In this document: positions 1 through 62,911 of the stretch, piece by piece
Numbering within the stretch: position 1 is the first letter of the stretch
Layout of the letters: each line of letters begins with the position of its first letter
Source: a virus
Reading direction: 5' to 3' (one strand)
IMG/VR virus record: IMGVR_UViG_3300025162_000041
Coordinates: 1 to 64,000 of that record
DNA length: 64,000 nucleotides
Program-made: the position numbers and the translations under genes
The notes under the pieces: model-generated
The model's database searches: none
Seen by the model: the letters and a program-made list of their open reading frames with translations, nothing else
What the model was told of the DNA's origin: nothing

Positions 1-200
1 CTTCTGGTCTATTCACAAAACGATGCTTGATTGATTTTACTGGATAGAAGCAATTATTTTCTACTATCCAAACCATGTATCAAAGAACTGTGATATGTAT
101 AACAGGAATTAAGAAGAATGTCAACAGAAATTATTAATTATATTTCGTTGCTCCTCCCCGAGGCTAAAGCCATCGGGGTTTCCGCAACGAAAGGAAAAAT
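1..200 (-). mobile_element. Non-autonomous IS200/IS605-family element (left part, cut by window edge); second copy of the 42843-43239 element
   Basis: About 90% identical by eye to the reverse complement of 42843-43043. Left-end hairpin at 156-178, guide GAAA (minus) and target TCAT, the reverse complement of ATGA at 201-204. Confidence 0.85.
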
Positions 201-1010
201 ATGAATGGCGAAATCTTTTTCAATATGTTTAGGGAACCACATCCATTTTATGGACATTCTGAGTTCATGTTGAAACGATGGCGTAAATATACGATTTATG
301 CTCAGTCGGGGTCATATGTCCGTTCGGATAATCCTTCGGAAATTGCAATTCACAGCAGTTCGGTTCGTCATATGACGGCTACAACTACTTATACCATTCC
401 CGACAGTCCAAAAGCAAACGTGTATTCCACAAATTCCATATATTTGTATGACTATGTGGTTGTCAGTGACAAATGGTTTTTAAGCAATGTCTATACTGCT
501 TCTACTGTTGATTCCACTCCCGCTTTGGATTACTATCATGATACAATTACAAATCAATGGACTCATAGTATAAATACTTGGCAAAATAGTCCAAATTCTG
601 TTACGAATGATTACTTATGGAGATACAATCCAACAGCATCATTGGTTGCGGGGTATCCGGTATATGGATATTCAACATTGACACAATATCACATACCTCC
701 TCCCCCTGAGAGTTATGAGACGTTAATGAAGACTCCTATTTTCAGGAATACTGATGGTACATATTTTGAGATTATTCGTGGATACCCGAGAAACCATTAC
801 ACTCACAAACGGGGATATTTTGCTTTGGATAGATTTACGATGTATGGATTTATTGACAAAACCGTGACTGTGGCGATGTATCGAAAGGGAATGCAGACTA
901 TTTCCACAACCATTGGTCCAAATGGATTAAGCGATGGAAGTAACCCTATTCAGGCAACTGTTGTCACGAACATTGATCTTATCAAGTCGGATAACGTAAT
1001 TTACCACTAA
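201..1010 (+). CDS. Virion structural protein, possibly the C-terminal fragment of a larger baseplate gene
   Basis: 269-aa Ser/Thr/Tyr-rich ORF heading a structural cluster; its ATG abuts the mobile element end. Confidence 0.5.
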   Translation: MNGEIFFNMFREPHPFYGHSEFMLKRWRKYTIYAQSGSYVRSDNPSEIAIHSSSVRHMTATTTYTIPDSPKANVYSTNSIYLYDYVVVSDKWFLSNVYTASTVDSTPALDYYHDTITNQWTHSINTWQNSPNSVTNDYLWRYNPTASLVAGYPVYGYSTLTQYHIPPPPESYETLMKTPIFRNTDGTYFEIIRGYPRNHYTHKRGYFALDRFTMYGFIDKTVTVAMYRKGMQTISTTIGPNGLSDGSNPIQATVVTNIDLIKSDNVIYH

Positions 1011-1081
1011 AAACCATCGGTTCACTGATACTTATAGATGAATACTTTTTATGGAAAACAAAAAGAATAGGATAAAATAAC

Positions 1082-1726
1082 ATGAGCTTTATTGACAACC
1101 AGAGCATCACTGTTGATGCAGTTCTTACCCAAAAGGGGCGACAACTTCTCGCACAGAATGGTAATTTGAATATAACCAGCTTTGCTCTTGCAGACGACGA
1201 AATTGATTATACTTTATATCAGCCAAATCATCCACAAGGCAGTGCCTTCTATGATATTGCCTTGCGTAACACCCCAGTCTTTGAGCCGCTTACTGACGAA
1301 ACGCAAGTGATGAAATACAAACTCGTTACGCTTAATCAAGGTGTAACGTCTATTCCAGTCATCACTATTGCTCAGGACAAGATTCTAGTAACGAAGGATT
1401 ACACGGGCGATATTATCATTAGCCCTTCCACGAATCCCGCGTATAATTTGCAATCAGGTTATACAGCGATTCTTGGAAACAAGAATGTAGGTATTTTGAT
1501 TGTCCAGCAAACCAATGCGGTTAATTCTGTTTCTAACACTGTTCCAACTTTTGCGGGTGACATTAATATTGCAAGTGCTCAAGTAGTTGTTGGGAATTCA
1601 TTCCGTTTTGTCCCGAATAGTGGGTTGAATAAGACGACTACAACTAATTTAACAATCGTTGGAAATGAATCGGGAGGAAGTACTTCCATCGAAGTCACCA
1701 TAACAGTTCCTCCATCGACACAGTAA
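1082..1726 (+). CDS. Phage structural (baseplate/tail-associated) protein
   Basis: VDAVLTQKGRQLLA...ITSFALADDEIDY resembles tail/baseplate proteins of large phages; TACTTATA late-type motif upstream. Confidence 0.6.
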   Translation: MSFIDNQSITVDAVLTQKGRQLLAQNGNLNITSFALADDEIDYTLYQPNHPQGSAFYDIALRNTPVFEPLTDETQVMKYKLVTLNQGVTSIPVITIAQDKILVTKDYTGDIIISPSTNPAYNLQSGYTAILGNKNVGILIVQQTNAVNSVSNTVPTFAGDINIASAQVVVGNSFRFVPNSGLNKTTTTNLTIVGNESGGSTSIEVTITVPPSTQ

Positions 1727-1730
1727 GTAT

Positions 1731-2891: not shown

Positions 2892-2926
2892 TTACGAGTT
2901 CTCAAAAGATAAAACTACGATTTGAA

Positions 2927-4102
2927 CTAAACTATTTTCCGCAATCCCGACCCGATGGGGCGGGTTAGGAAAATCATTGACAATAAAACAGAAACATGAT
3001 AGGATACAAAATGGTTCAATACCAAGTTAAACTAAAACTCAGCAAGACGCAGGAGAAACGACTCAATGATTGGTTGTGGAACTTGACTGGTGTTTGGAAC
3101 TGGGCTTGCCGGAAGATTGAACTAAACGCTAAAGACAAAATCTACTTCTCTCCGAAGAATTTTCAAAACTTGTTGGCAAACCACTCTAAAATCCTTGATA
3201 TTCCGTCTCATACTATCCAAGGAACATTGCTAACTGCACATGATGCTTGGTCAAGATGCTTAAAAAGATTGGCGAAGAAACCAAAACTCAAAGGAAAACG
3301 AAGACCGCTTAACTCTATTCCTTTTCCAGACCCCGTTAAGATTGTCAGCAATAAAGTAAGTATTCCCAATGTTGGATGGATTAACTTCCACAAACAATGG
3401 ATTCCGGAAGGAAAAATCAAGTGTGGACGAATCTGCAAGCGAGCATCTGGCTGGTATATGTGCTTATTCGTTGATGCCAAGCCAAAAGAGATACCAAAGG
3501 TTGGCAATGGAAAAGTAGGTATAGACCCCGGGTTCAAAGACCTGTTGACTTTTGATAATGGCGAGAAAATAACTCACCCGAAAGAGTTGAGATGGTCCGA
3601 AAAACGATTGGCTCAATCTCAACGGGGGAATCGGAAGAGGTTGTCTGCTCGTCTTAACGAGAGAATTAAGAACCGAAGGAAAGACCGGAATCACAAACTC
3701 TCAAGGAAGTTGGTTGCTGAGAACGATACTATTTGTTTTCTCCGAGACAATCATCGGGTGATTTCTAAACGATTTGGAAAGTCCGTAGCCGATTCTGCTC
3801 ATGGACAACTCAGGAAAATGTTGGAATATAAGTGCCTTACCGGCGATACGAAACTCATTTTCCCAGAGAACAGAAATTCCACAAGGACTTGCAGTCATTG
3901 TGGGGCCTTAACTGGTCCTACGGGCTTAGCAGGACTTAAGGTACGGGAATGGGATTGCGGAGTATGTGGTACTCATCACGACCGGGATACAAACTCGGCA
4001 CGTAACGCACTTATTCTTGGGGTCGGACGGACCCACGAGGTTGTCTATGCTTAATCACATGGATAAGTCAGGAATCCCAGAGCGATGCTCTGGGAGCGTC
4101 AA
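2927..4102 (+). mobile_element. IS200/IS605-family (IS1341-type, tnpB only) element 1
   Basis: Target TGAA 2923-2926; left guide CAAT 2942-2945 and hairpin 2946-2964; right guide GAAT 4072-4075, hairpin CCCAGAGCGATGCTCTGGG 4076-4094, terminal TCAA 4099-4102. Confidence 0.9.
2996..4054 (+). CDS. tnpB: TnpB RNA-guided endonuclease (likely start ATG 3011)
   Basis: N-terminal HTH, RuvC-I GIDPG, Zn ribbon CSHC/CGVC, RuvC-III DRDTNSARN. TTGACA(2977)-N17-TAGGAT promoter favours the 3011 start. Confidence 0.92.
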   Translation: MIGYKMVQYQVKLKLSKTQEKRLNDWLWNLTGVWNWACRKIELNAKDKIYFSPKNFQNLLANHSKILDIPSHTIQGTLLTAHDAWSRCLKRLAKKPKLKGKRRPLNSIPFPDPVKIVSNKVSIPNVGWINFHKQWIPEGKIKCGRICKRASGWYMCLFVDAKPKEIPKVGNGKVGIDPGFKDLLTFDNGEKITHPKELRWSEKRLAQSQRGNRKRLSARLNERIKNRRKDRNHKLSRKLVAENDTICFLRDNHRVISKRFGKSVADSAHGQLRKMLEYKCLTGDTKLIFPENRNSTRTCSHCGALTGPTGLAGLKVREWDCGVCGTHHDRDTNSARNALILGVGRTHEVVYA

Positions 4103-5310: not shown

Positions 5311-5331
5311 GGTTATTCAATAACGAAAATT

Positions 5332-6126: not shown

Positions 6127-6169
6127 TCTTAATATGATTCATATTTATAATGGAAACTTAAATTGACCT

Positions 6170-9202: not shown

Positions 9203-9280
9203 TCTGTAACTTTTTCGACCGAATTGTTAAATAGCGATATATTTATATCTAGACGAGAACAAATTTAACCATACAATTCT

Positions 9281-9631: not shown

Positions 9632-9654
9632 AACCCCGCTCTTTTGCGGGGTTT
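9632..9654. terminator. Hairpin terminator, possibly bidirectional
   Basis: AACCCCGC-TCTTTT-GCGGGGTT flanked by A/T runs. Confidence 0.55.
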
Positions 9655-9656
9655 AT

Positions 9657-9860
9657 ATTTCGTGTCGCCTGAAAACCCCTATCCCTTTAGGGAACGAGAA
9701 CGATAATGGAGTTGAAAGACCGAGTTTTCACTTGTTCTTGTGGTCTATCTTTAGACCGAGACATAAACGCTGCGAGAAACATTTTGAGATTGGGAAGACA
9801 ATCTCTTGCTTGTAATAAAGCATAGAAGCCCCGACCCTTTAGGGTCGTGGGAGTTTTCAC
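9657..9860 (+). mobile_element. Internally deleted IS605 element keeping the tnpB 3' tip and omegaRNA/right end
   Basis: Target TTAT 9653-9656, guide AAAA 9672-9675. Half left hairpin fused to a frame reading GTRTIMELKDRVFTCSCGLSLDRDINAARNILRLG. Right guide GAAG 9825, hairpin 9829-9851, terminal TCAC 9857-9860. Confidence 0.88.
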
Positions 9861-9876: not shown

Positions 9877-10287
9877 ATGGAAACACTTGATCTAGGTCAT
9901 TGGAAATTAGGAGATGGATTATCACAGGGAATTCCCGAAAACAGTATTGGGTTTGTTTATTTGATAATTGATCCCGACAATAAAAAATATGTCGGGAAGA
10001 AATTATTGATCAACAAAACTTGCAAAAAACCTCTTAAGGGACGAACTAATAAACGGCGGGGTATTAAAGAAAGCAATTGGAAAAATTATATTTCAAGTAG
10101 TCCAAAAATTCAGGAGAATATAGAAAAAAATGGAATAGAAAATTATCAATTCATTATATTGAAGTGGGCACCTAATAAAATGATGCTCGCTTATTATGAG
10201 ACTAAAGAGATAATTGAAAGAAATGCAATTTTCGACTTGACATATTGGAATGAAGTTTGTAACATAAGAATTCGTAACAGGAAATAG
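9877..10287 (+). CDS. GIY-YIG-like nuclease domain protein
   Basis: GFVYLI...KKYVGKK...WKNYISSS...E...YWN. Confidence 0.6.
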   Translation: METLDLGHWKLGDGLSQGIPENSIGFVYLIIDPDNKKYVGKKLLINKTCKKPLKGRTNKRRGIKESNWKNYISSSPKIQENIEKNGIENYQFIILKWAPNKMMLAYYETKEIIERNAIFDLTYWNEVCNIRIRNRK

Positions 10288-19001: not shown

Positions 19002-19030
19002 GGTTTTAGGATATTTCATTCTATATTTAC

Positions 19031-20294
19031 ATTCTTGGAGTCAGAAAGCCCCTTCGGCTTTAGCCAAGGGGATGAATGACGACCATATTAAGGAAATAAA
19101 AATAAAATGACATTTTCCTTAAAGTCAATGATATGTATGTCCGTGAATGTAAAACGAAACTACAAGTTTAGGTTGTCTCCCAAAGGAGGAACGCTGACCC
19201 GTCTTGAACAGACGAGAGAAACTTGTCGCTACGTCTATAACCAACTCCTTGAGAAGCGAAACGACCACTATGAGAAAACCAAGAAGACACTCACTCATTT
19301 TGATTGTTGTAAAGTGATTAAGGAGATGGAACTGAAAACTCCAGTCCATTCCCAAGTCCTCCAAAACGTATCTGCACGACTTGACCTTGCCTATCTTGGG
19401 TTCTTCCGTAGGTTGAAGGATAAGACAGGTAAAGCAGGATTTCCACGATTTAAGTCCTATGACCGATATGACTCATTCACTTTTCCACAAACGGGTTTTA
19501 AGTTGACTCCAAAGAAACTTTGGATGTCCAAGATTGGTGATGTTCGGATTAACCTCCACCGCAAAATGGAAGGTAAGATTAAGACCCTGACCATTAAACG
19601 TGAAGGCAATCATTGGTATGCTATTTTCTCATGTGAGGTTGAGATTAAACCAGAAGTTAAGAAGTGGAAACGAGCAGTTGGTATTGACGTTGGATGTATT
19701 GACTTTGCCACTTGTTCCGATGGGACGATCATTTCTCATCCTCATTTCTTACGACAATCTTCCGAGAAACTTTCCAAAATCCAAGGTAAGTATTCCAAAC
19801 TAAAAAAGAAACCAAGGGATGATAAGCAGAAGATTAAGACCAAGAGAGCATTGGTATCGGTTCATTGCAAAATAAAGAACCAACGAAAAGATTTCCTACA
19901 CAAGTTGAGCAAGAAGTTCGTAAGCGAATACTCTCATATTTGCGTGGAGGATATTAAACCAAGTCAGATGTTGAATGACAACTGGCGAAGTTTGAATAAG
20001 AGCATATTGGACTCAGGATGGACTACGTTTAGACAAATGCTACATAGCAAAGCGGTAGATGCTGGTTGTGAAGTGAATGACGTAAATCCTGCCTATACGA
20101 GTCAGATGTGTTCTGGTTGTGGCAACATTGAGATAAAGAAACTCTCTGATAGGCAACACAAATGTAATCTTTGTGGATTGGACATTGGAAGAGATTTGAA
20201 TGCTGCACGAAACATTTTAAGAGTCGGAATGGACTCTTTTGCTTCCAAAAGAAGCATGGAAGCCCCTATCCCTTTAGGGTAGGGGAGCATTCAC
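19031..20294 (+). mobile_element. IS200/IS605-family (tnpB only) element 2
   Basis: Target TTAC 19027-19030 with guide AAAG 19045-19048 (same pair as IS608), hairpin 19049-19071; right guide GAAG 20259, hairpin 20263-20285, terminal TCAC 20291-20294. Confidence 0.92.
19107..20282 (+). CDS. tnpB: TnpB RNA-guided endonuclease
   Basis: YKFRL HTH; intact RuvC triad GIDVG / ICVEDI / RDLNAARN; Zn ribbon CSGC...CNLC. Confidence 0.95.
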   Translation: MTFSLKSMICMSVNVKRNYKFRLSPKGGTLTRLEQTRETCRYVYNQLLEKRNDHYEKTKKTLTHFDCCKVIKEMELKTPVHSQVLQNVSARLDLAYLGFFRRLKDKTGKAGFPRFKSYDRYDSFTFPQTGFKLTPKKLWMSKIGDVRINLHRKMEGKIKTLTIKREGNHWYAIFSCEVEIKPEVKKWKRAVGIDVGCIDFATCSDGTIISHPHFLRQSSEKLSKIQGKYSKLKKKPRDDKQKIKTKRALVSVHCKIKNQRKDFLHKLSKKFVSEYSHICVEDIKPSQMLNDNWRSLNKSILDSGWTTFRQMLHSKAVDAGCEVNDVNPAYTSQMCSGCGNIEIKKLSDRQHKCNLCGLDIGRDLNAARNILRVGMDSFASKRSMEAPIPLG

Positions 20295-20315: not shown

Positions 20316-20960
20316 ATGTATAAAGGCAAGACAAACATAGAAATTGTAAAAAGTTATTTGGAAGGAGAAAAGTTATTTCCTGTATTCGGTTATACTGGCA
20401 AAGAATACGTCAAACGAGCCATAGGAGAGCGTTGGATTGATAAATCGAATCAAGAGTGGGAGCAGAAGGCAGGTGGCCCTCAGAAGATCAATAGGGTGGC
20501 AAATATCGTGCGTGCGGCTATTGGCAATCAAAAATGCCGATGTGGTCAACAAATTCGGTGGGGTACTAAATTAGATAGATTATTTTTTAACAAAACTGGA
20601 TTATGTGAAGGATGCCTCATTGATTATGAAACTAAATTACGTGTGTTGGGTATTTACAACGATTACGAGAAATACAAACTAGCTTCCAATGAACTTGGAC
20701 ATGTCAAGGACATGAAAACCAAAATCCGCGAGACAATTAAGTATTTCGAGTCCGATGACACCGACGTTAAGATGCTGTGTAATTCCGAAGGGTTCGTGGA
20801 GAGATGGAGGACAACCAATATCGAAGATATTCTTAAAGATGCCAGGAAAGATTTGAAGGAGGCTCATCAACGTATTGTTGCGCTAGTGAGAATTCGGGAC
20901 GAACAAAAAGTAAAGTATATCGAGGCTTGCGCCAAATATAAATTGGAAACTATATGCTAG
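20316..20960 (+). CDS. Hypothetical protein coupled to terminase (Cys motifs)
   Basis: AAGGA RBS; overlaps the terminase start; CRC...CEGC. Confidence 0.6.
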   Translation: MYKGKTNIEIVKSYLEGEKLFPVFGYTGKEYVKRAIGERWIDKSNQEWEQKAGGPQKINRVANIVRAAIGNQKCRCGQQIRWGTKLDRLFFNKTGLCEGCLIDYETKLRVLGIYNDYEKYKLASNELGHVKDMKTKIRETIKYFESDDTDVKMLCNSEGFVERWRTTNIEDILKDARKDLKEAHQRIVALVRIRDEQKVKYIEACAKYKLETIC

Positions 20961-23785
20961 ATGGAAAAATCTCCTATCAAGACCTAATCCGAGAGGAATA
21001 TAAAAAGTGCTTAGAGTCACCAGTGTACTTTATGAAGCAGTATGTCAAAATCAAACACCCAATGCGGGGTACGATTCTTTTTGACTTGTTCAAATTCCAA
21101 GAGGAAACTCTACAAGCTTTTCACGATTATAAGTTCAATATTATCCTCAAATCCCGACAAATGGGTATTTCAACCCTTGTTGCTTCGTATTCCTTATGGC
21201 TGATGATTTTCCATAAGGATAAGACTGTTCTTTTGATTTCGTTAAAGCAAGATGATGCCAAAGATGTTTTGACTAAGGTTCGGGATGCTTATAAAGAACT
21301 TCCCAACTGGCTCAAGATTCAATGTAGCGAAGATAATCGTCTGTCCATTCGGTTTTCCAATGGCTCGCGCATTCAAGCTGCCTCTACTACGAAAAAATCA
21401 GGTGTAGGTCAAGCCCTTTCTCTTCTGATTATTGATGAAGCTGCACTCATTGAAGATGCCGAAGACCTGTGGACATCTGCACAACCAACATTGTCAACCG
21501 GTGGAAACGCCATCGTTCTTTCAACCCCCCGAGGAGTAGGAGGATGGTTTCATAAAATATGGCAGGGCGCATCCGATGATAACCAAGATGGCACCGTAGG
21601 GAGAAATGGATTCCATCCTATTACTCTCCCGTGGCAGCTTCACCCCGAACGGGACGATGAATGGCGCAGAATTGAAGGCGAAAAACAAGGTAATCCTAAA
21701 AAGGCGTCACAAGAATATGACTGCAATTTCCTCTCATCTGGTGATAACGTCGTTGACCTCAATATCATTGAGTTCTATAAGAAAAATAAGGCGTGTGATC
21801 CTGTAGAATGTCGGGGCATGGGTAAGAACCTATGGATTTGGGAGTATCCTGATAGAAGTCATGTCTATGTTGTATGTTTGCCATCTGGAGAATCGGTATT
21901 AACAGAAATGGGGGTTAAAAGAATAGAAGATGTGACTTATGAGGATAAGCTCATTGATAAGGATGGTTATATTACAAATATCGAGGATATAAAGGTTAGA
22001 CTATATAACGGGAAAATATATGAAATAACTCCTTCCAATACATTTCGAACAACAAAATTTACAGATGAACATCCGATTTTTGTAAGTCAAACTTCCAAAT
22101 TAAATAGGATGTATAAAAAGGATGATATAAATTATAGGTTTAATCAGAGATATTGGGAACATGATTTTAAGTTTGTAGATGCCAAAGATGTAAAGAAAAA
22201 TGATTGGATACGTTTTCCAAACATTTATACAAAAAATAAACTGGATAGTTTAAGTATAATGTGGAAAGAGTTTGAGAATATAGGAAGAATTGATTTTCAA
22301 ATTAAAGATAATCCATTTTTGAATGAGGATTTTTGGTGGTTTGTTGGTATTTGGTTGGCTGAGGGGTGGTGTTATACAGATAAAAGCGGAAATGTTACAA
22401 TTCATACGGCACATAACTCAAGCGAAACTATTATTATAAATAAATTGCGACGTATTGTTTTTGATCTGTTTGACAGAACTTTGCTTGTTATGCCAACAGA
22501 AAATAATACAACTGTATGTCAATTTGGATCTAAACAAATCGGGACGTTGTTAGAAAAATATTTTGGAAAGTATGCTGGAGGAAAGTTTATCTCGGAACGC
22601 ATAAAATATATCTCTCAAAATGAGAAAATACAATTGATCAATGGATATATTGCCGGAGACGGATGTGTTTTAGCTAATAAGCGAGGAGCAAAATCTATAA
22701 AAATAACATCAATATCATTAAGATTACTAGAAGATATTCAAGATATGCTATTTTCATTAGGATGTGTTTCTTCTCTTAATTTATTGCGGGTAAAAAAACA
22801 AGCGAAGATAAGAGAAAAAAATATAAACCAAAAACAAGCATATTCGTTAACTATTTCGGATTATGGATGTAAATGTTTAATATTAGGGCATTTGCCAAAA
22901 TCTAAATCTCAACGAACGGCGGATTGTTATTTAAGCCCGGATAATCAATATATTTATTTTCGTGTAAAAAAAGTAAAAGAGATGTTTTATTGTGGGGAGG
23001 TTCATAATTTCACGACAAAATCTGGTACTTTTTTGTGTGAAAATATAACCACTCATAATTGTGCCGATGTAGCCCGTGGCGATGGCGCTGATTATTCGGC
23101 ATGTCATGTTTTAGACATCAGTAGAGAAAAACCAGTCCAAGTCGCCGAATACAAGGGTAAAATTAGTACTAAAGATTTTGGTGATTTTCTTGTAGCATTA
23201 GCAACTGAGTATAATAGCGGTTTGCTCGTGATTGAACGTGAAAATGTTGGATGGGGCACTATTCAAGAAGTTCTTGATCGGGGTTATCCAAATACTTTTT
23301 ATAGTTCCGCAGACCTTAAGTATGTTGAAGTTCAACGTCAACTGAATAATAATTGGGCCGCCGAGGACAAAAAACTTGTCCCAGGATTCAGCACAAACGT
23401 CAGAACTCGTCCTCTCATAGTTGATAATATGGAGCATTACATGCGACATATGGCTGTTGAAATTCGCTCAAAACGCACCCTTGCAGAACTAGAGACCTTC
23501 GTTTGGAAGAATGGTAAACAAATCGCAATGGAGGGCTACAACGACGACTTAACGATGGCTCTCTGTATTGGTTTGTGGGTCCGTGATACAGCCCTTCGCT
23601 TACGTCAAGAAGGAGTCGAATTAACTAAGATTGCTGTAAGTGGAATGACTAAAGATAAAATGGATCAAACACCATTCTATAAAGTGAAACAAGCCCAGAC
23701 AGGCCATAATGCGTGGACAATGAATACGGGACGCCAAGGCTTCGGCAAACAAAATCAAGAGGATTTACGTTGGCTTATCGGCTAA
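20954..23785 (+). CDS. Terminase large subunit (gp17-like) with one intein
   Basis: KSRQMGIST Walker A, LIIDEAA Walker B, STPRG, nuclease ADVARGDGAD, YNDDL. Confidence 0.95.
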   Translation: MLDGKISYQDLIREEYKKCLESPVYFMKQYVKIKHPMRGTILFDLFKFQEETLQAFHDYKFNIILKSRQMGISTLVASYSLWLMIFHKDKTVLLISLKQDDAKDVLTKVRDAYKELPNWLKIQCSEDNRLSIRFSNGSRIQAASTTKKSGVGQALSLLIIDEAALIEDAEDLWTSAQPTLSTGGNAIVLSTPRGVGGWFHKIWQGASDDNQDGTVGRNGFHPITLPWQLHPERDDEWRRIEGEKQGNPKKASQEYDCNFLSSGDNVVDLNIIEFYKKNKACDPVECRGMGKNLWIWEYPDRSHVYVVCLPSGESVLTEMGVKRIEDVTYEDKLIDKDGYITNIEDIKVRLYNGKIYEITPSNTFRTTKFTDEHPIFVSQTSKLNRMYKKDDINYRFNQRYWEHDFKFVDAKDVKKNDWIRFPNIYTKNKLDSLSIMWKEFENIGRIDFQIKDNPFLNEDFWWFVGIWLAEGWCYTDKSGNVTIHTAHNSSETIIINKLRRIVFDLFDRTLLVMPTENNTTVCQFGSKQIGTLLEKYFGKYAGGKFISERIKYISQNEKIQLINGYIAGDGCVLANKRGAKSIKITSISLRLLEDIQDMLFSLGCVSSLNLLRVKKQAKIREKNINQKQAYSLTISDYGCKCLILGHLPKSKSQRTADCYLSPDNQYIYFRVKKVKEMFYCGEVHNFTTKSGTFLCENITTHNCADVARGDGADYSACHVLDISREKPVQVAEYKGKISTKDFGDFLVALATEYNSGLLVIERENVGWGTIQEVLDRGYPNTFYSSADLKYVEVQRQLNNNWAAEDKKLVPGFSTNVRTRPLIVDNMEHYMRHMAVEIRSKRTLAELETFVWKNGKQIAMEGYNDDLTMALCIGLWVRDTALRLRQEGVELTKIAVSGMTKDKMDQTPFYKVKQAQTGHNAWTMNTGRQGFGKQNQEDLRWLIG
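21875..23059 (+). mobile_element. Intein with LAGLIDADG endonuclease (395 aa) in terminase
   Basis: VYVV|CLPSGE...TDEHP...GIWLAEG...GYIAGDG...TTHN|CADVARG. Confidence 0.92.
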
Positions 23786-34526: not shown

Positions 34527-34572
34527 CATTTTGACTTTGTTGCGATATAGTATAAGCAATAAAGTCAAAATT

Positions 34573-36273: not shown

Positions 36274-36284
36274 AGCATATTTAT

Positions 36285-36573
36285 CTTTTAGGGAGCAGAA
36301 AACTCCTTGGTCTTCAGCCAAGGAGATGAATGCGACCCACAAATATAATTAGCTGACTTCTTCTGTGTCATAATATATATTGGTAATATGATTGAATAAG
36401 AGACGATAACCAAGTCTCACAACACAATCGAAAAATAATTTTCTGGTTAAGAAACCAGATAACGGTCGGAACGACCGTATAAGCCGTCTGTCTTGACATA
36501 AGACTTTGTTAGAAATAACGAAGCAGTTGATTGGGTCGGAAACACCTACGTCTTTAGCGTAGGGGTAGTTCAT
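36285..36573 (+). mobile_element. ORF-less IS605 derivative (ends plus putative omegaRNA), 289 bp
   Basis: Target TTAT 36281-36284, guide AAAA 36299-36302, hairpin 36303-36325; internal GGTCGGAACGACC stem; right guide GAAA 36539, hairpin, terminal TCAT 36570-36573. Confidence 0.85.
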
Positions 36574-36580: not shown

Positions 36581-37408
36581 ATGAATAATATCAAAACATT
36601 TCTGAAACAATGCATTGCAGAAGTATTGGTTGAGCCAGCAAAGCAATTCAATCGTCTGCAAGGAAAGAAAATGCGTTCACTGATAAAGCAGTGTATCGCA
36701 GAAGTTATAATTGAGCCTGTTTCACGTAAGATGAAGGTATATGGAAATCCTAAGCGTCTTCAAATGGCTCACTTAATTAAAGAATGCGTAATGGAGGTTT
36801 TGAAAGAAAACCTATTGTCCGAAATTTTCGATCCTCAATCTCAAGGTCCAAATATGGTGGAAGAAAATCCGTATCCAGCGATGAATGCCAAGATGCGGAT
36901 GATGGACGAGCAAGAAAATAAGCCCAAAGAAGATGCGTGGACAAGATATGAAAAAGGATATGATGCTGGTCAAGTCCATAAGAGAAGTGGTATAAAGCCA
37001 GAAGGTCCGATGGATTCCGTAACTTCGGTTGGTTATCATGATGCACTCAAAGGAAAGGCTAAATCTTCTCCCGAAGTTGTTCGAAAGACTATTAAAGAAA
37101 CCGAACCCCAGGGGCGTTACTCCAAACAAATAGGGGTAACTCCATCTCAGTCTTCTAGCGATACAAATATTGCGGAATATGAAAACTATCTCAAGGAAGC
37201 AAGTCGTACACAATCTACCAGTATTCATTGGACTTGTCCGCATTGTGGAAAATTGACTAATATTGATGTTGAAATTGAATCTTCCTCTGATTATATTGCT
37301 TGTGCCGACTGTGAGCATTGCGGCAAAGAAATCAATAGTCCAAAGTTAGATCAACAAATTTATAAAACCGTTGTCGATCATTGTTCTAGTCAACAACCCC
37401 TACCCTAA
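36581..37408 (+). CDS. Hypothetical protein with triple N-terminal repeat and C-terminal Zn ribbon
   Basis: LKQCIAEV / IKQCIAEV / IKECVMEV; CPHC...CEHC. Confidence 0.6.
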   Translation: MNNIKTFLKQCIAEVLVEPAKQFNRLQGKKMRSLIKQCIAEVIIEPVSRKMKVYGNPKRLQMAHLIKECVMEVLKENLLSEIFDPQSQGPNMVEENPYPAMNAKMRMMDEQENKPKEDAWTRYEKGYDAGQVHKRSGIKPEGPMDSVTSVGYHDALKGKAKSSPEVVRKTIKETEPQGRYSKQIGVTPSQSSSDTNIAEYENYLKEASRTQSTSIHWTCPHCGKLTNIDVEIESSSDYIACADCEHCGKEINSPKLDQQIYKTVVDHCSSQQPLP

Positions 37409-37423
37409 AGGGATAGGGGCTTG
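37389..37423 (-). mobile_element. Solo IS605 right end
   Basis: Minus strand CAAG-CCCCTATCCCTTTAGGGTAGGGG-TTGT-TGAC; hairpin identical to 20263-20285. Confidence 0.75.
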
Positions 37424-37505
37424 TAATACTTCTCTACTAAAGGCAGGATGCAATTATTTGATACTTGACTTCGTATCCACCTGTGTTATATTGGTGGCGA
37501 AAATC

Positions 37506-39508: not shown

Positions 39509-41137
39509 CTATGGATTAGTCCATTCATACTTCAAACTTCCACAGTCCCATATTCTATCCCATCCATTCAACTGCATATTTTCCCATTCAGTAAGTATCG
39601 GGTCAAATGTTTGTAATTTTTTGGAAAGTTCTGTTTTTCTGAATGCAAATCTATGAAATCGTTTTTGATAATTGTGTTTATTTATATACCAATAATTTGG
39701 AACTCCATCCGATACCTTTTGAAACCCAATTTTTTCATAGAGATTTCCTTTGCTCCATCGTCGGTCCGCATATGATACAATTTTGCGGGGGCTGTATTTT
39801 TTGATAAAATATGATAAGAGTTTTCCAGCTATTCCAACAACATTTTTTGATGTGGCAAATCGTATAAGTTCATATGTGTCATTGAAATGAGATTTTTTAT
39901 ATCCCATAATTTTTCTTAATTTTCCAAAAGTCATTACCGAAACTAATTCGGAATTATAATATGCTCCGATATGAATGGATGATTTATCGGAGCCTTGAAT
40001 ATGATACATATTTAGAAATTGACATCCGTCGGGAAATGATATTTCTCGCAATGTACATTTTCTAGCATAAATCGAATTTTCTATAGATATATTGAGAATA
40101 TGAGATAATTTTCTTTTAACTATCTCCTTTTTATTTATCCATTCGTCTTCAAATATTTGAATTAGATAAATCCCTCTATCTTTACATTTTTCCGTTTTAT
40201 TTAAATGATATAATTTCGATTTTCCGCCAGCAATTTCGGAATGATAATAGTTCCCATTTAGTTCTATTGCTATTTTTTCCTTGGGCAAATAAATATCTAT
40301 CTCAAATTTATTATCAAATTCTTTCCTGCAATTAAATCTTATAATTCCATTGTATATCTTTTGTATGAATTCTTTTAATTCATTTTCTATTTGAGAACGA
40401 GGCATTGGATTACATTTATAGCACTGAACACCTATGTAATTATTCTCAAATTCGTTTCCGCATTTTGTACATTTAAACTGATACAATTTCCCTTTGTTGA
40501 ATCCTATGAATTCAGTTTGAGAAAATTGAGGAATAATTGATGTATTTTCAAGAAGTTTATCGTATATTTTTTTACACCAAGTCATAGATGTTTTTCGGGA
40601 AATTTCGGGCAACATCATTGGGTGTATTACTCCGTATTTCTTTACATTATTTTGATGGGTGTTATTTTTTACTGTTTCGGACGATTTACTATATTCCAAT
40701 CCATATTTTATCAGATTGGTTTGTTTTATTTTTTCAATGATTGATGGCAGTCGAAAAACATTATCTACGCCGTATTTGTCCAAACATCCTTGTTTAGATC
40801 TCGTTTGTATCTCGGAAGATGACATTGCTTCGATAGTTCCAAATTTCTGAAGACATGTTTTTTGAACCCGCCTTCTTATTTCAGGAGATAATCCAGCGTT
40901 GGTTACCCCATAGGTTTTCATTGTTGAATTTTCCCGTTTTTTTACAATACATTTTTTGCCACAACACGTGTCAATTTCGGACTCGGAATTTCGACGAGCC
41001 ATGAATATTTTCTCCGAGGATTTTTCAAATATAATGCCACAGATGTCACACTTTGCTATAATAATTCGGCTGGAAAATTTCCCTGTGGAATTCGGGTCGA
41101 TGTTGTACTTTCGAATTGTTTCTTCGTGTAAAATCAT
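39509..41137 (-). CDS. Hef-like putative homing endonuclease, paralog 2
   Basis: Same architecture and C-terminus as 34573-36273; own TTGACA promoter near 41190. Confidence 0.75.
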   Translation of the reverse strand: MILHEETIRKYNIDPNSTGKFSSRIIIAKCDICGIIFEKSSEKIFMARRNSESEIDTCCGKKCIVKKRENSTMKTYGVTNAGLSPEIRRRVQKTCLQKFGTIEAMSSSEIQTRSKQGCLDKYGVDNVFRLPSIIEKIKQTNLIKYGLEYSKSSETVKNNTHQNNVKKYGVIHPMMLPEISRKTSMTWCKKIYDKLLENTSIIPQFSQTEFIGFNKGKLYQFKCTKCGNEFENNYIGVQCYKCNPMPRSQIENELKEFIQKIYNGIIRFNCRKEFDNKFEIDIYLPKEKIAIELNGNYYHSEIAGGKSKLYHLNKTEKCKDRGIYLIQIFEDEWINKKEIVKRKLSHILNISIENSIYARKCTLREISFPDGCQFLNMYHIQGSDKSSIHIGAYYNSELVSVMTFGKLRKIMGYKKSHFNDTYELIRFATSKNVVGIAGKLLSYFIKKYSPRKIVSYADRRWSKGNLYEKIGFQKVSDGVPNYWYINKHNYQKRFHRFAFRKTELSKKLQTFDPILTEWENMQLNGWDRIWDCGSLKYEWTNP

Positions 41138-41235: not shown

Positions 41236-41260
41236 ACCTTTAGGGTGTGGAGTATGTCAA
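41236..41260 (+). mobile_element. IS605 right-end remnant
   Basis: ACCTTTAGGGTGTGGAGTATGTCAA: 3' half of the hairpin plus terminal TCAA. Confidence 0.5.
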
Positions 41261-42146: not shown

Positions 42147-42842
42147 TTACTTCTCTTCTCCATCTTCGGCTCCTTCTGGTTGGCCTTCTTCTTCCGCCGA
42201 TTCATATTTAGAAAATGCGGTCCAGCAAAATTGATTTCCTTCTTTTACTTTCTTAATTACAGTAGTAGTGTTTTTTCCGAAGTCATCGGTCATTTCATAT
42301 TTCAATAAGAACTTATCACTACTTGTAGGTTTCTCATGCGAAAGTCCAAGTTTAGCTAGAAACCTAATTAAAATATTAGCTCCTTCAGTTTCATTAATAA
42401 AGGTAATGCTTTTTTGAATACGAATTTTGTCATCTATAGTTGTCTCATCATCCTCGGATGGTTCGTTGGCAGCAGTATTGGATGGAGTTGATTGCATTGG
42501 CTGAGCTGGTTGCATTGGCTGGGCTGTTTGGGCGGGAGGATATGATGCTAACTCGGTTACTAATGCCTGCCGTTCCTTCGGTGTCATTTCAATACCACGA
42601 CATTGATTTACATAGCTATCAAAATCTGCGTTGGTATCAAATGTCTTAGCAATTACGTTTGGTTGTGGACGAGAATCTCCGCCTGTAAATTCATTTTCGG
42701 ATACTGATAGATTTCCGCTTGCTGGAATATCAGTTTCTCCACCAATACATCCTTCTTTGAATTTTCGTAAGCCAACAAGAAGCTTACGCTTCTGATCTTC
42801 ACTCATTTGTTCTTTTAATGCTCTCAGCCGCTTGATGTTCAT
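42147..42842 (-). CDS. Hypothetical protein
   Basis: 231 aa; start codon abuts the 397-bp element. Confidence 0.6.
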   Translation of the reverse strand: MNIKRLRALKEQMSEDQKRKLLVGLRKFKEGCIGGETDIPASGNLSVSENEFTGGDSRPQPNVIAKTFDTNADFDSYVNQCRGIEMTPKERQALVTELASYPPAQTAQPMQPAQPMQSTPSNTAANEPSEDDETTIDDKIRIQKSITFINETEGANILIRFLAKLGLSHEKPTSSDKFLLKYEMTDDFGKNTTTVIKKVKEGNQFCWTAFSKYESAEEEGQPEGAEDGEEK

Positions 42843-43239
42843 GTTTTTCCTTTCGTTGCGGAAACCCCTATCCCTTTAGGGTAGGGGATGAGCAACGAAA
42901 TATAATTGATAATTTCTGTTGACATGTTTCTTAGTTCCTGTTATATATATCACAGTTCTTTGGTATATAGTTTGGATAGCAGAAAATAATTGCTTCTATC
43001 CAGTAAAATCAATCAAGCATCGTTTTTGTGAATAGACCAGAAGGCACTCCGCTTGCGGAGGAACCGTTATGTAGGGTCTTTGACTCACAATCAACATCCT
43101 CCTCGTTGCCCGTTAAGGGCAAGCTGGAAGGCAGGCCACGGTCAATTGGCCAATCGTCTGTAAATCTTTCTTGAATTATGTTAAGCATAAGCATTAGAGT
43201 CTGGCAAGCCCCGACCCTTCAGGGTCGCGGGTAGTTGAC
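42843..43239 (+). mobile_element. ORF-less IS605 derivative, 397 bp (promoter plus putative omegaRNA)
   Basis: Target TCAT 42839-42842, guide GAAA 42861, hairpin 42865-42887, TTGACA(42919)-N17-TATATA, several internal stems, right guide CAAG 43205, terminal TGAC 43236-43239. Confidence 0.88.
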
Positions 43240-43470: not shown

Positions 43471-45051
43471 ATGGACAGTAATCTTTTCAAAGAAGCTATT
43501 GCCGATGCCAAGGCAGTTCGCCAAACAGCACTCGCTAACGCAAAGGTAGCACTCGAAGAAGCATTTAACGATAGATACAAAATGATGTTCGCCGAGAAAC
43601 TCAAAGAAGAAGCAGAGCAAGAAGAAACTGCGATGCCAGAAGAAGAAAACGGAATGCAACCGCAAGGCGCATCTTCCGTGTCGGAAACAGAAGTGGATGA
43701 CCTCATCCGTGAACTGGAAGCCGAAGTAGGCGAAGAACCACATCCCGAACCCGAAGGCGATGAAGCGGGAGCAGTCCCACCACCGCCCGCAGGAGCAGGA
43801 GCACCGCCAATGGGTGGAGCACCAATGGGCGGAGCACCAATGGGTGAACCTCCAGTAGGCGGAGCACCAGAAGAAATGCCACCAATGGGTGGAGCACCGA
43901 CAGTGTGTCCTCCAGGGACAATTCCATGTCCGGGCGCTCCGGGTGGACAGCCAATCCCACAATCAGGTGGAGCAGGCGCACCTCCAATGGGCGGAGCACC
44001 GCCAATGGGTGGAGCAGGCGCACCGCCAATGGGTGGAGCACCACCGATGGGTGGAGCAGGCGCACCGCCAATGGGTGGAGCGCCAGAAGGTCAAGAACCG
44101 CCTCCATCAGACGTTCCCCCACCATCGGGAGAAGAAGAAGACGAGGAATTCGATTTGAATGAACTTTTGGAAAGCCTCAAAGCCGAAATCGGGGAGGAAG
44201 ACGAAGAGGAAGAAGAAGAAGAAGAGGAAGAGGGCAAGAAACTTGATGAACAGACGAAGCTTACTTCATCTGGTATCGGCAGTGGCAAAGCAGGCGGGTC
44301 TCCAAATAAGAAACCATCCTCAGCCGCAAGTTCTACCTCGAAAATTGAATCCGCTGCCAATGATGACGAAGGTTATCCAACAACGGACCAAGCGAAAGTC
44401 GTGGCTAGAGAAGCAACCCAAGCGAGTCGGCCAAATCAAGCGAAGAACGCAACGAAGACCAATCTGTCTACCCCATCAATGGGCGGAAGTAATGGTTCAG
44501 GTGGACAGTCCGATATCGGATATCCAAAGACCGACCAAGCCAAGGTAACATCCAGGGAAGCTTCTGGCGCAACTCGCCCTAACCAAGCGAAGAACGCAAC
44601 GAAGACAAATCTTTCCACTCCTGGTGGAATGTTGCAAGAGAATTCGTTTCTCAAAAAACAACTTAACGAAGCGGAAGATGTAATTCGCTACGTCAAAGGA
44701 CAACTTAATGAGGTTAACTTGTTGAATGCTAAACTGCTTTACACGAACAAGCTGTTTAAACAATACAACATGAACAACGAACACAAAATGCGTATCGTTG
44801 AAATGTTTGACCTCGCCAAAAATGTTCGTGAAGTAAAGTTGACTTACGCCAACATTACCGAGTCATTGAATTTCGGTGGAACTGAAGTGAGAAGGAAGGT
44901 TCAAACTTCCTCAACAGTTCAGTCTATTACCGAAGGTCTCGCATCAGGCGCAGTCGCATCAACACGGCCCAAGGCTATCATAACCGAAGGCAAGTTCGCC
45001 AGCAGAATGAAACAACTCGCAGGCATTCGTAGCGAACCAACAAAGAAATAA
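43471..45051 (+). CDS. Prohead scaffold protein (gp22-like)
   Basis: Directly upstream of the capsid gene; acidic/coiled-coil; EAIADAKAVR, LNEVNLLNAKLLY, RMKQLAGI. Confidence 0.8.
   Translation: MDSNLFKEAIADAKAVRQTALANAKVALEEAFNDRYKMMFAEKLKEEAEQEETAMPEEENGMQPQGASSVSETEVDDLIRELEAEVGEEPHPEPEGDEAGAVPPPPAGAGAPPMGGAPMGGAPMGEPPVGGAPEEMPPMGGAPTVCPPGTIPCPGAPGGQPIPQSGGAGAPPMGGAPPMGGAGAPPMGGAPPMGGAGAPPMGGAPEGQEPPPSDVPPPSGEEEDEEFDLNELLESLKAEIGEEDEEEEEEEEEEGKKLDEQTKLTSSGIGSGKAGGSPNKKPSSAASSTSKIESAANDDEGYPTTDQAKVVAREATQASRPNQAKNATKTNLSTPSMGGSNGSGGQSDIGYPKTDQAKVTSREASGATRPNQAKNATKTNLSTPGGMLQENSFLKKQLNEAEDVIRYVKGQLNEVNLLNAKLLYTNKLFKQYNMNNEHKMRIVEMFDLAKNVREVKLTYANITESLNFGGTEVRRKVQTSSTVQSITEGLASGAVASTRPKAIITEGKFASRMKQLAGIRSEPTKK
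43795..44085 (+). repeat. Coding tandem repeat (G)APPMGG
   Basis: Repeated GCACCGCCAATGGGTGGA-like units. Confidence 0.85.
44371..44622 (+). repeat. 35-aa internal duplication in scaffold
   Basis: GYPxTDQAKVxxREAxxAxRPNQAKNATKTNLSTP at about 44371 and 44518. Confidence 0.85.
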
Positions 45052-59929: not shown

Positions 59930-60005
59930 AGGTTATATTTTGATTTGAAGTTATAGTTATAAATATCGGGTCATAAGGAATATCTTAATTCCAAATGGAA
60001 AGTTG

Positions 60006-60494: not shown

Positions 60495-60969
60495 GTATTT
60501 TCAAAAGCTCAAGGGCACGTGCTTCAATTACTTCTAATGCCATGTTCATATTATGTAATTCAGTATCCATCAGTTTGCCTTTTGATGACAGTGATCTTAC
60601 TAATTTTGCCGCTTGAATAATTTCTTTTGCTATTTTAATTTCTCGCTTTTCATTTGGGTCGGATATATCTGTTTCGCCAGGCATGTCTGATTTATCAAAA
60701 TACTGCTGATCCTCATCATCCTTATAACCATATTCTTTGGCCAACATTCTAGCCTCTTGAATAGCAGTTTTCTTGGCTTCTTCTACACTCTTAATATAGC
60801 CAAGCCCAACCCCTTGCAGTTTCTTATATGAAAGTCGTTTGTCTCCTGCACCAAAGACCTTCTTTAAACCTTCCCGAACAAGCTTTGCCTTGGGATTAAC
60901 TTCATCAATACTCTCAGTTATGAGTTTGAATTGATTTCCACCGATATTTTCGAATAGTTTTTGTTTCAT
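60487..60969 (-). CDS. Hypothetical protein
   Basis: Late motif at 60993 favours the MKQKLFE start. Confidence 0.55.
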   Translation of the reverse strand: MKQKLFENIGGNQFKLITESIDEVNPKAKLVREGLKKVFGAGDKRLSYKKLQGVGLGYIKSVEEAKKTAIQEARMLAKEYGYKDDEDQQYFDKSDMPGETDISDPNEKREIKIAKEIIQAAKLVRSLSSKGKLMDTELHNMNMALEVIEARALELLKIHG

Positions 60970-61063
60970 ATACCTTAAAAATTTGTCTATCCTATAAATA
61001 TAAATTGCCGCTATCAATCGGCAATAATAAAATAACTTGATGTTTTATTGTTTTTGACTTATA

Positions 61064-62848
61064 TTGAAAGGTAATATGCGAAAACCCAATACGGATGAAC
61101 TTATTAGTATTATATATCAGAATAAATGTCATTACAGGTCAATAATCAAATCTAAGTTTCCAGAATTACATCTGTTTATAGAAACTGAATATTATGGGAA
61201 TTCGTTCGGGGAAAAGTTATATAGATGGATACACGAAAACTCGGCGGGGGGTGTGTGTAAAGTTTGTCAATCTTCAACCAGGTTCAAAAGTATTTTTGAT
61301 GGATTCCAAACATATTGCTCATCGAGGTGTTCCAATGGAGATATTATAGTTAAACAACTCAAAGAAGATTCTTATTTGAAGAATTGGGGGGTTAAAAATC
61401 CATCTCAAGCAGAAAAAATTAAAGGGAAGAAAAAACAAACTTGCGAGAAACACTTTGGAGTTGATTGCAATTTGAAATTGGGTTCGTGTAAATTACAAAT
61501 CAAAGAAACAAATCGACAAAAATATGGAGTTGATTATCCTCTTCAAAATCAAAGTATATTAGAAAAACAACAGGATACCAATCTGCAACGATATGGGAAA
61601 CGATCTGTCGGTCAAGTAGAAGAATTTAAAACGAAAGCAATTCAAACAAACCTGAGTAAATTCGGAGTAGAGCATCCGATTCAAAACAAAGAAATACACG
61701 CAAAACTAGAAGAAACAAATCTAAAACGGTTCGGAGTTAGGCATATGGCCCAAAGTGATAAATATAGAATTGAAAGGCGAAGAAGATTTTTTGAAACATT
61801 ATTGCATTCCGATAGGTTAAAATCCAGAGTTACTCCGATGTTTGTCTTAGCGGATTTTATCGACTGTAATACTAAAAATAAGTATGATTTCAAATGCAAT
61901 ACATGTGCAAATGTGTTTCAAGATCATTTGGACAATGGACGAATTCCAAGGTGTTATAAATGTTATCCGCTGCTTTATCAGTCTTTTGCCGAAAGAGAAA
62001 TAGCCGATTTTATACGCAATTCTATAGCCGATAAAATAGTTGAAAACGATAGGTCTGCGCTTGGAAATTTGGAATTGGATATTTATATTCCGTCCAGAAA
62101 TTTGGCAATAGAATTCAACGGATTATATTGGCACAGTGAATTGGGAGGTAATAAAAATAAAGATTATCATCTCAATAAAACTGTAAGATGTCAATCGAAA
62201 GGAATAAGACTTATTCAGATATTTGAAGATGAATGGTTACAAAAACAAGACATAGTAAAAAAACGACTTGCTCATTTGTTGGAACTGGACATGTCCAGAA
62301 TATATGCCAGAAACTGCGTTATTATTCCCATTCCTAACGTTCTTTGTGCCGAGTTCTTAGAGAAAAATCATTTGCAAGGAAAAGATAATTCTACTATAAA
62401 ATTAGGAGCATATTATAATAGCGAATTGGTTTCGCTTATGACATTCGGCAAACATAGATTTTCAAAGAATAAAGATGTTTGGGAAATGTATCGTTTTTGT
62501 TCGTCTAAAAATGTGGTTGGAATAGGAGGAAAATTGTTTAAATATTTTGTGAAAAATTATAATCCCAACCAGGTTATTTCCTATGCCGATAGAAGATGGT
62601 CGTCGAATATTGCGTTTTATGAAAAAATTGGATTTCAATCCGAAGGAATGACTCGGCAAGGTTATTATTATATGGACGACTATCGGAATCGATATTATAG
62701 ATTTAACTTTAGAAAATCAGTATTATCTAAAAAATTAAAAGTATATGATTCTAATTTAACCGAATGGGAGAATATGCAATTAAATGGATACGACCGAATA
62801 TGGGATTGCGGAAATTTGAGATATAAATGGACTCCACATAACTTTTAA
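61064..62848 (+). CDS. Hef-like putative homing endonuclease, paralog 3
   Basis: Same motifs as paralogs 1 and 2; inserted antisense within the neck genes. Confidence 0.75.
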   Translation: MKGNMRKPNTDELISIIYQNKCHYRSIIKSKFPELHLFIETEYYGNSFGEKLYRWIHENSAGGVCKVCQSSTRFKSIFDGFQTYCSSRCSNGDIIVKQLKEDSYLKNWGVKNPSQAEKIKGKKKQTCEKHFGVDCNLKLGSCKLQIKETNRQKYGVDYPLQNQSILEKQQDTNLQRYGKRSVGQVEEFKTKAIQTNLSKFGVEHPIQNKEIHAKLEETNLKRFGVRHMAQSDKYRIERRRRFFETLLHSDRLKSRVTPMFVLADFIDCNTKNKYDFKCNTCANVFQDHLDNGRIPRCYKCYPLLYQSFAEREIADFIRNSIADKIVENDRSALGNLELDIYIPSRNLAIEFNGLYWHSELGGNKNKDYHLNKTVRCQSKGIRLIQIFEDEWLQKQDIVKKRLAHLLELDMSRIYARNCVIIPIPNVLCAEFLEKNHLQGKDNSTIKLGAYYNSELVSLMTFGKHRFSKNKDVWEMYRFCSSKNVVGIGGKLFKYFVKNYNPNQVISYADRRWSSNIAFYEKIGFQSEGMTRQGYYYMDDYRNRYYRFNFRKSVLSKKLKVYDSNLTEWENMQLNGYDRIWDCGNLRYKWTPHNF

Positions 62849-62911
62849 CATCTTCGTGGCAAGAAATCCCACTTGCTTTAGCGGGTCTCCTTTAGGGGAT
62901 GGGTAGTTCAT
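62849..62911 (+). mobile_element. 63-bp collapsed IS605 element (left end fused to right end)
   Basis: Target TTAA 62845-62848, guide AAAT 62864-62867, two half hairpins, terminal GGGTAGTTCAT. Confidence 0.75.

Follow-up and report, generated by a model that had tools for sequence, protein, structure and literature searches.

Several lineages of IS608-like elements with programmed target words in a fragment of a freshwater jumbo phage

IS608 of Helicobacter pylori is bounded by subterminal imperfect hairpins with an extrahelical base, a guide of four bases stands 5' of each hairpin foot, and insertion makes no target duplication. All of these features recur, with the same spacing (left site 14-18 nt ahead of the guide, right site 4-5 nt past the hairpin), in a set of elements and remnants, here named A to K, carried by a freshwater jumbo phage. 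They are described from the 82,907-base IMG/VR record IMGVR_UViG_3300025162_000041, of which bases 1-64000 are hereafter the window; J and K lie beyond it. The likeness extends to the AT and AG dinucleotides 3' of the hairpins and to two of the guide/site pairs themselves, AAAG/TTAC (left end of C) and GAAT/TCAA (right end of A). The phage elements differ from IS608 in having no tnpA in the available DNA, in their TTTA or TTCA loops, in a T before the target tetramer that extends the word to TTNAN, and in their jumbo-phage carrier; moreover, in their autonomous relatives tnpA lies antisense to tnpB.

A dense population of related elements is known from one Geobacillus stearothermophilus genome, for which the accessible part of Meers et al. 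(2023) reports 47 IS200/IS605-like elements in five families (ISGst1-5), with covarying site words and DNA guides and one TnpA that is active in trans on several families. The same part of that paper states that many elements resembling palindrome-associated transposable elements (PATEs) code for omega RNAs, which are available to TnpB only in trans. As far as that account goes, the phage elements are alike in that many lack tnpA, several families with similar ends are present, guide and site covary, and minimal forms without an open reading frame (ORF) occur; they differ in lying on a virus fragment, with about 11 elements or remnants in 83 kb, and in being known here from sequence alone. A first-pass annotation of the window had called them a natural library. 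Several target specificities are indeed present in one phage, but, judged by the accessible part of the Geobacillus study, such a collection is not new in kind.

ISDra2 of Deinococcus radiodurans (TnpB structures 8h1j and 8exa) is a further relative, since the TnpB of element C aligns over its full length to ISDra2 TnpB (8h1j, E 8e-50) and retains all three acidic positions of RuvC. However, the two proteins are only ~35-40% identical, the ends and guides differ, and ISDra2 carries its own tnpA. The free-standing homing endonuclease genes of T4-like phages (Seg, Mob) are likewise selfish intergenic cassettes that are polymorphic between related phages; they rely on protein-guided cleavage and recombination into the same locus, whereas the present elements insert in a sequence-programmed manner at many loci. 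Insertion sequences are reportedly rare in phages. Published reports describe TnpB as frequent in phages, and one study of jumbo phages from the gut records introns and homing endonucleases and makes no mention of transposons. No paper mapping ends, guides and ORF-less derivatives in a phage genome was found in the openly readable literature, supplements excluded. The elements described here are known biology in a new, dense setting, the jumbo phage.

The fragment contains at least three lineages of IS200/IS605-family (IS608-like) elements, and we consider it very probable that they move as IS608 does, TnpA probably being supplied in trans. By this mechanism a Y1 (HUH) TnpA would bind the end hairpins on single-stranded DNA, and the guide would base-pair with the cleavage site: position 2 of the site would be read by N1, position 4 by N4, and the first T by the second A of the guide. 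Excision would be followed by insertion on the 3' side of a matching TTNAN word, with no duplication of the target. Insertions would be found only at gene boundaries, those inside the genes of a densely coding phage being lost.

The hairpins were located by a scan blind to guides, which used pairing and G+C content only and allowed bulges; a stricter, bulge-free scan misses most ends. The guide-blind scan returned 13 IS-type hairpins in the record, 11 in the window and two beyond it, together with four to five unrelated hairpins, three of which lie within a coding repeat. The IS-type hairpins show the arrangement typical of IS200/IS605 elements, namely subterminal imperfect palindromes on one strand, in fixed orientation around TnpB genes or ORF-less interiors. 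Their anatomy comprises nine pairs, a TTYA loop and one bulged base, with the four-base guide directly 5' of the foot; in A the loops are GATG and not TTTA. Reading and a script check showed that all loci and all 13 guide/site pairs of the first-pass annotation are present, as follows (window coordinates unless marked as record coordinates).

Element I: 1..200, minus strand; left ~200 nt of a G-type ORF-less element, truncated by the contig end.
Left end of I: minus strand; hairpin 156-178, guide GAAA 179-182, site TCAT 201-204.
Element A: 2927..4102, plus strand; TnpB-only (TnpB 2996-4054).
Left end of A: plus strand; site TGAA 2923-2926, guide CAAT 2942-2945, hairpin 2946-2964.
Right end of A: plus strand; guide GAAT, hairpin 4076-4094, site TCAA 4099-4102.
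Element B: 9657..9860, plus strand; deletion derivative with a TnpB C-terminal remnant at 9712-9783.
Left end of B: plus strand; site TTAT 9653-9656, guide AAAA 9672-9675, hairpin broken.
Right end of B: plus strand; guide GAAG, hairpin 9829-9851, site TCAC.
Element C: 19031..20294, plus strand; TnpB-only, ORF 19107-20282, likely true start 19137.
Left end of C: plus strand; site TTAC 19027-19030, guide AAAG 19045-19048.
Right end of C: plus strand; guide GAAG, site TCAC.
Element D: 36285..36573, plus strand; 289 bp, ORF-less, PATE-like.
Ends of D: plus strand; left site TTAT 36281-36284 with guide AAAA 36299-36302, right end GAAA/TCAT.
Element E: 37389..37423, minus strand; 35-bp solo right end made up of CAAG, hairpin, TTGT and TGAC.
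Fragment F: 41236..41260, plus strand; half hairpin, AG, TATG and TCAA, guide absent.
Element G: 42843..43239, plus strand; 397 bp, ORF-less.
Ends of G: plus strand; left site TCAT 42839-42842 with guide GAAA 42861-42864, right end CAAG/TGAC.
Element H: 62849..62911, plus strand; 63-bp relic, left-end parts (TTAA 62845-62848 / AAAT) fused to a right-end tail TAGT-TCAT.
Element J: record 70088-70372, minus strand; 285 bp, ORF-less, left TTAT/AAAA, right GAAG/TCAC.
Element K: record 75308-75663, minus strand; 356 bp, G-type, ORF-less, left TCAT/GAAA, right CAAG/TGAC.

The first-pass annotation had proposed that a guide N1-A-A-N4 specifies a site T-comp(N1)-A-comp(N4), where comp is the complementary base, and 13 of 13 window ends fit. 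The rule was examined on all TTYA-loop hairpins in the record and 129 fetched loci (L-numbered), which gave 48 unique hairpins, 43 IS-type and 5 unrelated. When the guide was taken automatically as the four bases before the C:G foot and the predicted word was sought 12-19 bases upstream or 3-6 downstream, the fit was 39/43 for the IS-type hairpins and 0/5 for the unrelated ones. The four misses are register slips, with a lost G in the 3' arm, and fit after correction. With guides registered by homology the fit is 42/43, and the single miss had fitted in the automatic run; other T-N-A-N words occur only occasionally in the same search intervals. All four ends of J and K, which lie outside the window and are therefore out of sample, obey the rule.

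The predicted word is present in 28 of 28 left-end flanks, 23 read by script and five by eye (A, B, H, K and L040/L041). An element does not bring its left flank along, so every insertion locus tests the rule independently; the ends share ancestry, and a cautious count therefore gives nine different guide/site pairs. Five are left pairs (CAAT/TGAA, AAAA/TTAT, AAAG/TTAC, GAAA/TCAT and AAAT/TTAA), which bears out, for left ends, the five target specificities that had been proposed, and four are right pairs (GAAT/TCAA, GAAG/TCAC, GAAA/TCAT and CAAG/TGAC). Covariation is seen directly where the same hairpin carries different guides: an identical 23-base hairpin is accompanied by GAAG/TCAC in C and by CAAG/TGAC in E. 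Similarly, the related left ends of L039 and L040 have AAAG/TTAC and AAAA/TTAT, respectively, a matching change of guide and site.

The base preceding the tetramer is T in 21/22 left flanks and at 19/19 right ends, and the true target word is probably the pentamer TTNAN. The pentanucleotide target of ISDra2, TTGAT, fits this word. On the 3' side of the hairpins, AT follows the left hairpins and AG follows the GAAG and GAAT right hairpins. These dinucleotides stand at the same positions as A+42/T+43 and A-10/G-9 of IS608, where, in the accessible part of He et al. (2011), purines 3' of the hairpin form triplets. The same part of that work describes pairing of C-3 with G-35 and of T-4 with A-34, T-4 also contacting A-2, and the pairing scheme of the phage ends is consistent with it.

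Empty sites were sought in relatives with ~65-85% nucleotide identity to the window, the first-pass annotation having predicted precise junctions and no duplicated target. Precise empty sites were obtained for B and G. In L006 the same terminator hairpin that precedes B is followed by TTTAT and then directly by the right-flank sequence of B, and in L025 TTCAT is followed by a homolog of the right flank of G. For A, C and I the prediction holds only approximately: the empty site of C is near-exact in L023 and L024 (TTTAC, then a related leader), at the position of I the same ATGAATGG start is immediately preceded by a short intergenic spacer in eight relatives, and in five relatives TGAA lies a few bases before an ATG at the position of A. 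H is absent in L066, where the two convergent genes abut. The genes neighbouring D, F and H differ in relatives, so no direct empty-site comparison is available there. No target-site duplication was found at any junction examined, and no window insertion is shared with any of the relatives compared.

The boundaries of C are also delimited by homologous copies at other positions. In nine C-related copies on other IMG/VR contigs the homology ends exactly at 20294, and on the left it ends 4-8 nt before 19031. The C-type copies, at 78-99% identity, occupy differing flanks, and the copy in L045 is 99.1% identical over 1,272 bases, again with different flanks. The elements are real, discrete and recently mobile, as follows from the empty sites and from copies of C that end sharply within other flanks.

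These data bear on a rival account, in which the hairpins would be repeated regulatory hairpins of the phage (terminators, or hairpins like repetitive extragenic palindromes) that lie between genes and do not move. The hairpins are GC-rich and sit in intergenic DNA, and both B and an element in the related record G004 come directly after a terminator-like hairpin and T tract. Such hairpins, however, would not be expected to be precisely present or absent between relatives, to be paired in fixed orientation around TnpB genes, to show covariation of guide and site, to bound a 1.26-kb copy that is 99% identical in a different context, or to delimit elements with both tnpA and tnpB. We therefore regard this account as extremely improbable.

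A candidate transposase for these ends is encoded by related phages. Eleven related virus records (G-numbered) were compared, and a ~133-aa Y1 TnpA (PF01797) is encoded in three of them, G004, G007 and G010. In G004 tnpA lies antisense beside tnpB, and the ends of this element (TTAT/AAAA left, GAAA/TCAT right) are nearly the same as those of D. The tnpA+tnpB element of G007 combines the TCAT/GAAA left end of G, I and K with the right end of E (CAAG, TTGT-TGAC); for the tnpA element of G010, no left end could be located within the sequence that was inspected. Autonomous copies exist in the phage clade, although not in every genome. The mobilisation in trans that had been suggested for the window is plausible, because tnpA+tnpB elements of relatives have the same ends. 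TnpA would most likely be provided in trans by an autonomous copy in the part of the genome beyond the record, by a co-infecting related phage, or by the host.

The ends are not confined to phages. The same right-end architecture (GAAG, CCC..TTTAG..GGG, AGCAT, TCAC; L140-L174) is also present in cellular genomes, in 35 stretches that span several phyla, including Methanotrichaceae (many copies), Planctomycetota, Verrucomicrobiota and Opitutaceae, and also Chlamydiae, Bacillota and Nitrososphaerota. Candidate left ends in these cellular loci gave no fit in the automatic register. The distribution of the right ends across cellular phyla indicates that the element family is old, widespread and not phage-specific.

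Several points weigh against movement by the IS608 route. The right flank of A cannot be aligned to the empty sites of relatives, and most left boundaries were placed by finding the predicted word, which is partly circular; independent boundary evidence comes only from B, C, G and the left junction of I. A PF01797 search of the 82.9-kb record, some 23% of the genome by CheckV completeness, gave no Y1 TnpA; the elements are tnpA-less, as the first-pass annotation had it, throughout the available sequence, including the part beyond the window. The related record G006, which is rated 89% complete, has 11 TnpB matches and no TnpA, so that in part of these phages all copies may be immobile or dependent on the host. 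Excision was looked for in contigs at the junctions of A, B and C, using four metagenome runs from four studies (2016-2020). Contigs bridge these junctions and none skips an element, although contigs drop rare variants. The window's own insertions look fixed in the population. Loose contig ends at the shared hairpins reveal that, in those samples, these hairpins also stand in many further contexts.

The accessory nuclease of the family, TnpB, is represented by full genes in A and C and by a 44-aa C-terminal remnant in B, the latter with a TNB match in profile searches. TnpB A matches Pfam OrfB_IS605 and Cas12f1-like_TNB as well as the TnpB structures in the PDB. It belongs to a ~350-aa family of 1,907 proteins at E <= 1e-30; no close IMG/VR relative was found by peptide patterns, and the best matches in five related phage records are only 31-34% identical. 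The canonical RuvC-II stretch I-x-V-E-D is absent in 9/9 aligned members of the family (A and eight homologs), and D177, E242 and D331 are invariant. Since the loss is conserved in all nine, which come from diverse sources, it is a family trait and not decay, and the possibility that TnpB A is a dead copy was discarded. Its catalytic site may be rearranged; rearranged TnpB catalytic sites, some of them typical of viruses, are described in the accessible part of Altae-Tran et al. (2023).

The ORF-less cassettes plausibly retain an omega-RNA region. A block before the right end, consisting of CAGG, four bases, GTCAA and a short stem, is common to G, K and the TnpB-bearing elements of G007 and L034. 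Its stem has a few compensatory pairs, in a comparison of only four sequences, Rfam at gathering thresholds gave no match, and no RNA run was listed among the sequencing runs searched for this DNA. In addition, G, I and K have an inward site of the TTGACA-N17-TATA type, which in G reads TTGACA-N17-TATATA at 42919-42947. A consensus promoter scan did not call the G site, the second hexamer of which lacks the final T. TnpB and an omega RNA may also have a part in maintaining the elements.

These observations raise the question whether RNA-guided homing alone could account for the insertions, TnpB and omega RNAs cutting empty sites in co-infecting phages and recombination then copying the element. 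TnpB C is full-length with its RuvC acidic residues, G and K keep a right-end-proximal region conserved with TnpB-bearing elements as well as the promoter-type site, no TnpA is encoded in the record, and the accessible part of a 2026 review considers non-restorative homing into co-infecting phages theoretically possible. Homing, however, copies an element to the same locus only, whereas here one family occupies many unrelated loci, each with the word predicted by the DNA guide, so that TnpA-type integration is needed. Moreover, no relative shares any window insertion, the empty sites of G and A have a different seed-proximal flank, and the promoter-like site in G is not recognised by the consensus scan. 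Homing on its own is thus an unlikely explanation.

An extension of this idea, to which we give a similarly small chance, is that the TnpB genes and the promoter-bearing ORF-less cassettes together form a network of RNA-guided homing or marker exclusion among co-infecting jumbo phages. Every insertion would then be the source of an omega RNA with the right flank of that insertion as its guide, and TnpB acting in trans would cut rival genomes that carry an empty TTNAN-plus-flank site, converting or excluding them. If this were true, the phage clade, sometimes with its own TnpA, would be a self-sufficient habitat for the transposons, and their DNA guides would diversify within it.

The positions of the IS608-like insertions relative to genes were assessed on a crude gene map, for which the empty genome was rebuilt and the 64 longest ORFs were taken; the map overestimates coding, at 95.6%. 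On this map only 3-7% of matching words are non-disruptive, and none of the nine insertions disrupts a gene: although the map places G and H within ORFs that are drawn too long, the real starts and stops put both at gene ends. The TCAT target of I is antisense to the start, ATGA, of gene 201-1010, the left end of G abuts the start codon of gene 42147-42842 (minus strand), H lies between two convergent stop codons with its right-end guide absent, and E supplies the last codons and the stop of ORF 36581-37408. An all-non-disruptive pattern is expected from purifying selection alone in a lytic-type genome.

The first-pass annotation had gone further, proposing that the elements target phage expression signals and act as gene-boundary cassettes. 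It had itself suggested a comparison with the background of matching words. On the crude map, non-disruptive TCAT sites lie at a gene end in 21/69 cases, against 3/3 for G, I and K (P ~0.03). The motif ATATTTA(T/C) is enriched between genes (41 copies) and ends at 13/109 non-disruptive TTAT sites and 1/25 TTAC sites; only C and D follow it, and the adjacency to this promoter motif is not significant. What precedes B, the G004 element and L033 is a terminator T tract instead. Beyond purifying selection on AT-rich words, targeting of expression signals is unsupported.

Could the elements nevertheless be domesticated boundary cassettes that supply ribosome-binding sites, promoters and stops, and that preferentially target such signals? 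In G and I the stretch AAAGGAAAAA(C/T) stands directly before the displaced ATG, yet it occurs only in these two, which are 91% identical copies, and an AGGA-like stretch is absent from the left ends of K, L026, G007, L067 and L034. G, I and K all abut start codons, but relatives express the same genes without elements. C and D follow the enriched intergenic motif, whereas among 17 other TTAC or TTAT flanks, read by eye, it is present in at most one. The terminal TCA of H and of F doubles as an antisense stop codon, a coincidence that arises because every TNAN word contains TAA or TGA or its complement. All of the insertions are absent from relatives, which do without them, and the cassette role is both unsupported and, in our estimate, decidedly improbable.

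Throughout the record a motif, ATATTTAT(A), is enriched intergenically on the coding strand, from a few to ~45 bases before start codons, with examples in the window at 9239, 23793, 29723, 50798 and 52813. It is a candidate phage promoter, and is related to, although not identical with, the T4 late TATAAATA.

The lineages and their decay can be followed from shared end sequences. A and C are TnpB-only elements, B, D, G, I, J and K are deletion or ORF-less derivatives, and E, H and perhaps F are end relics. All stages of reduction claimed by the first-pass annotation are thus represented, from TnpB-only elements to a 35-bp relic. C, B, J and D have left or right parts in common at 74-83% identity; the right 100 nt of B are 76% identical to the right end of C, and the left 97 nt of D are 75% identical to J. 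A left part of ~190 bases is common to G, I and K at 83-91% identity (I is 91% identical to 42838-43026 in G, and all three can be aligned), and G and K also have a short right part in common. A, with its GATG loops, stands apart from the other elements. D, G, J and K each have both ends, no protein gene and a length of a few hundred bases, as PATEs do, and no TnpB similarity above chance was found inside them.

Among the relics, H has counterparts in single-hairpin mini-elements of ~50 bp in L067 (minus, ~7567) and L088 (minus, ~3687), each of which consists of a leader and guide of the left-end kind, a single hairpin and the tail of a right end; the guide fits the left site and not the right. 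Fusions of the H type are probably the product of deletions that joined the two similar hairpins. E lies where L026-L028 hold ~2.9 kb more DNA with several small ORFs (window 37367-37503 versus L026 7019-10001), and the gene upstream of E is ~40 codons shorter than in these loci; the E junction may be an element-associated deletion. F resembles the 3' halves of right ends and is a possible right-end remnant.

Other selfish DNA lies close by. Three paralogous genes for homing endonucleases of ~580 aa (phrog_3339, DUF7487) are present at 34531-36273 (+), 39509-41137 (-) and 61064-62848 (+), and are ~73-78% identical in parts. D and H come directly after two of these paralogs, and F lies just upstream of the third. 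A gene for a SegE-like GIY-YIG endonuclease (9877-10287) follows B, and in L006 (~20550-20830) a different gene follows the same empty B site. At the site of A, six or seven relatives have an unrelated endonuclease-like gene of ~940 bp; in L006, L007, L010, L012, L016 and L017 this gene measures ~900-1,100 bp, has a conserved terminal W-E-S-D-I-type motif and looks like a free-standing endonuclease. This intergenic site is a hotspot for selfish DNA.

The phage itself is a freshwater jumbo phage. Profile searches of the window identified genes for the large terminase, major head protein, prohead protease and an SbcC-like protein; the records of related phages measure 303-459 kb, and the major head protein of one of them, G007 (353.8 kb, rated 100% complete), is 77% identical to that of the window. 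DNA near-identical to the window is present in freshwater and lake metagenomes from four studies (2016-2020). A tRNA scan of the window found none, and megablast of 20 kb of the window against GenBank phages gave no match. The large terminase ORF (20954-23785) contains an in-frame block of ~1.19 kb (21871-23062) without counterpart in L023 and L024, and its PHROG matches cover residues 6-311 and 730-877 only; the block looks intein-like. ORF 43471-45051 contains tandem repeats of 15-24 bases (43778-44100) that encode Gly/Ala/Pro-rich peptide repeats.

Overall, the elements provide a compact natural data set for the IS608 guide rule, with nine guide/site pairs and 28 independent insertions, near-identical hairpins that carry different guides and matching sites, and a hint of the pentamer TTNAN. 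The IS200/IS605 populations of these freshwater jumbo phages are dense, diverse and recently mobile, and some copies are autonomous; this bears on how TnpB travels among bacteria, archaea and viruses and on whether RNA-guided homing takes place between phages.

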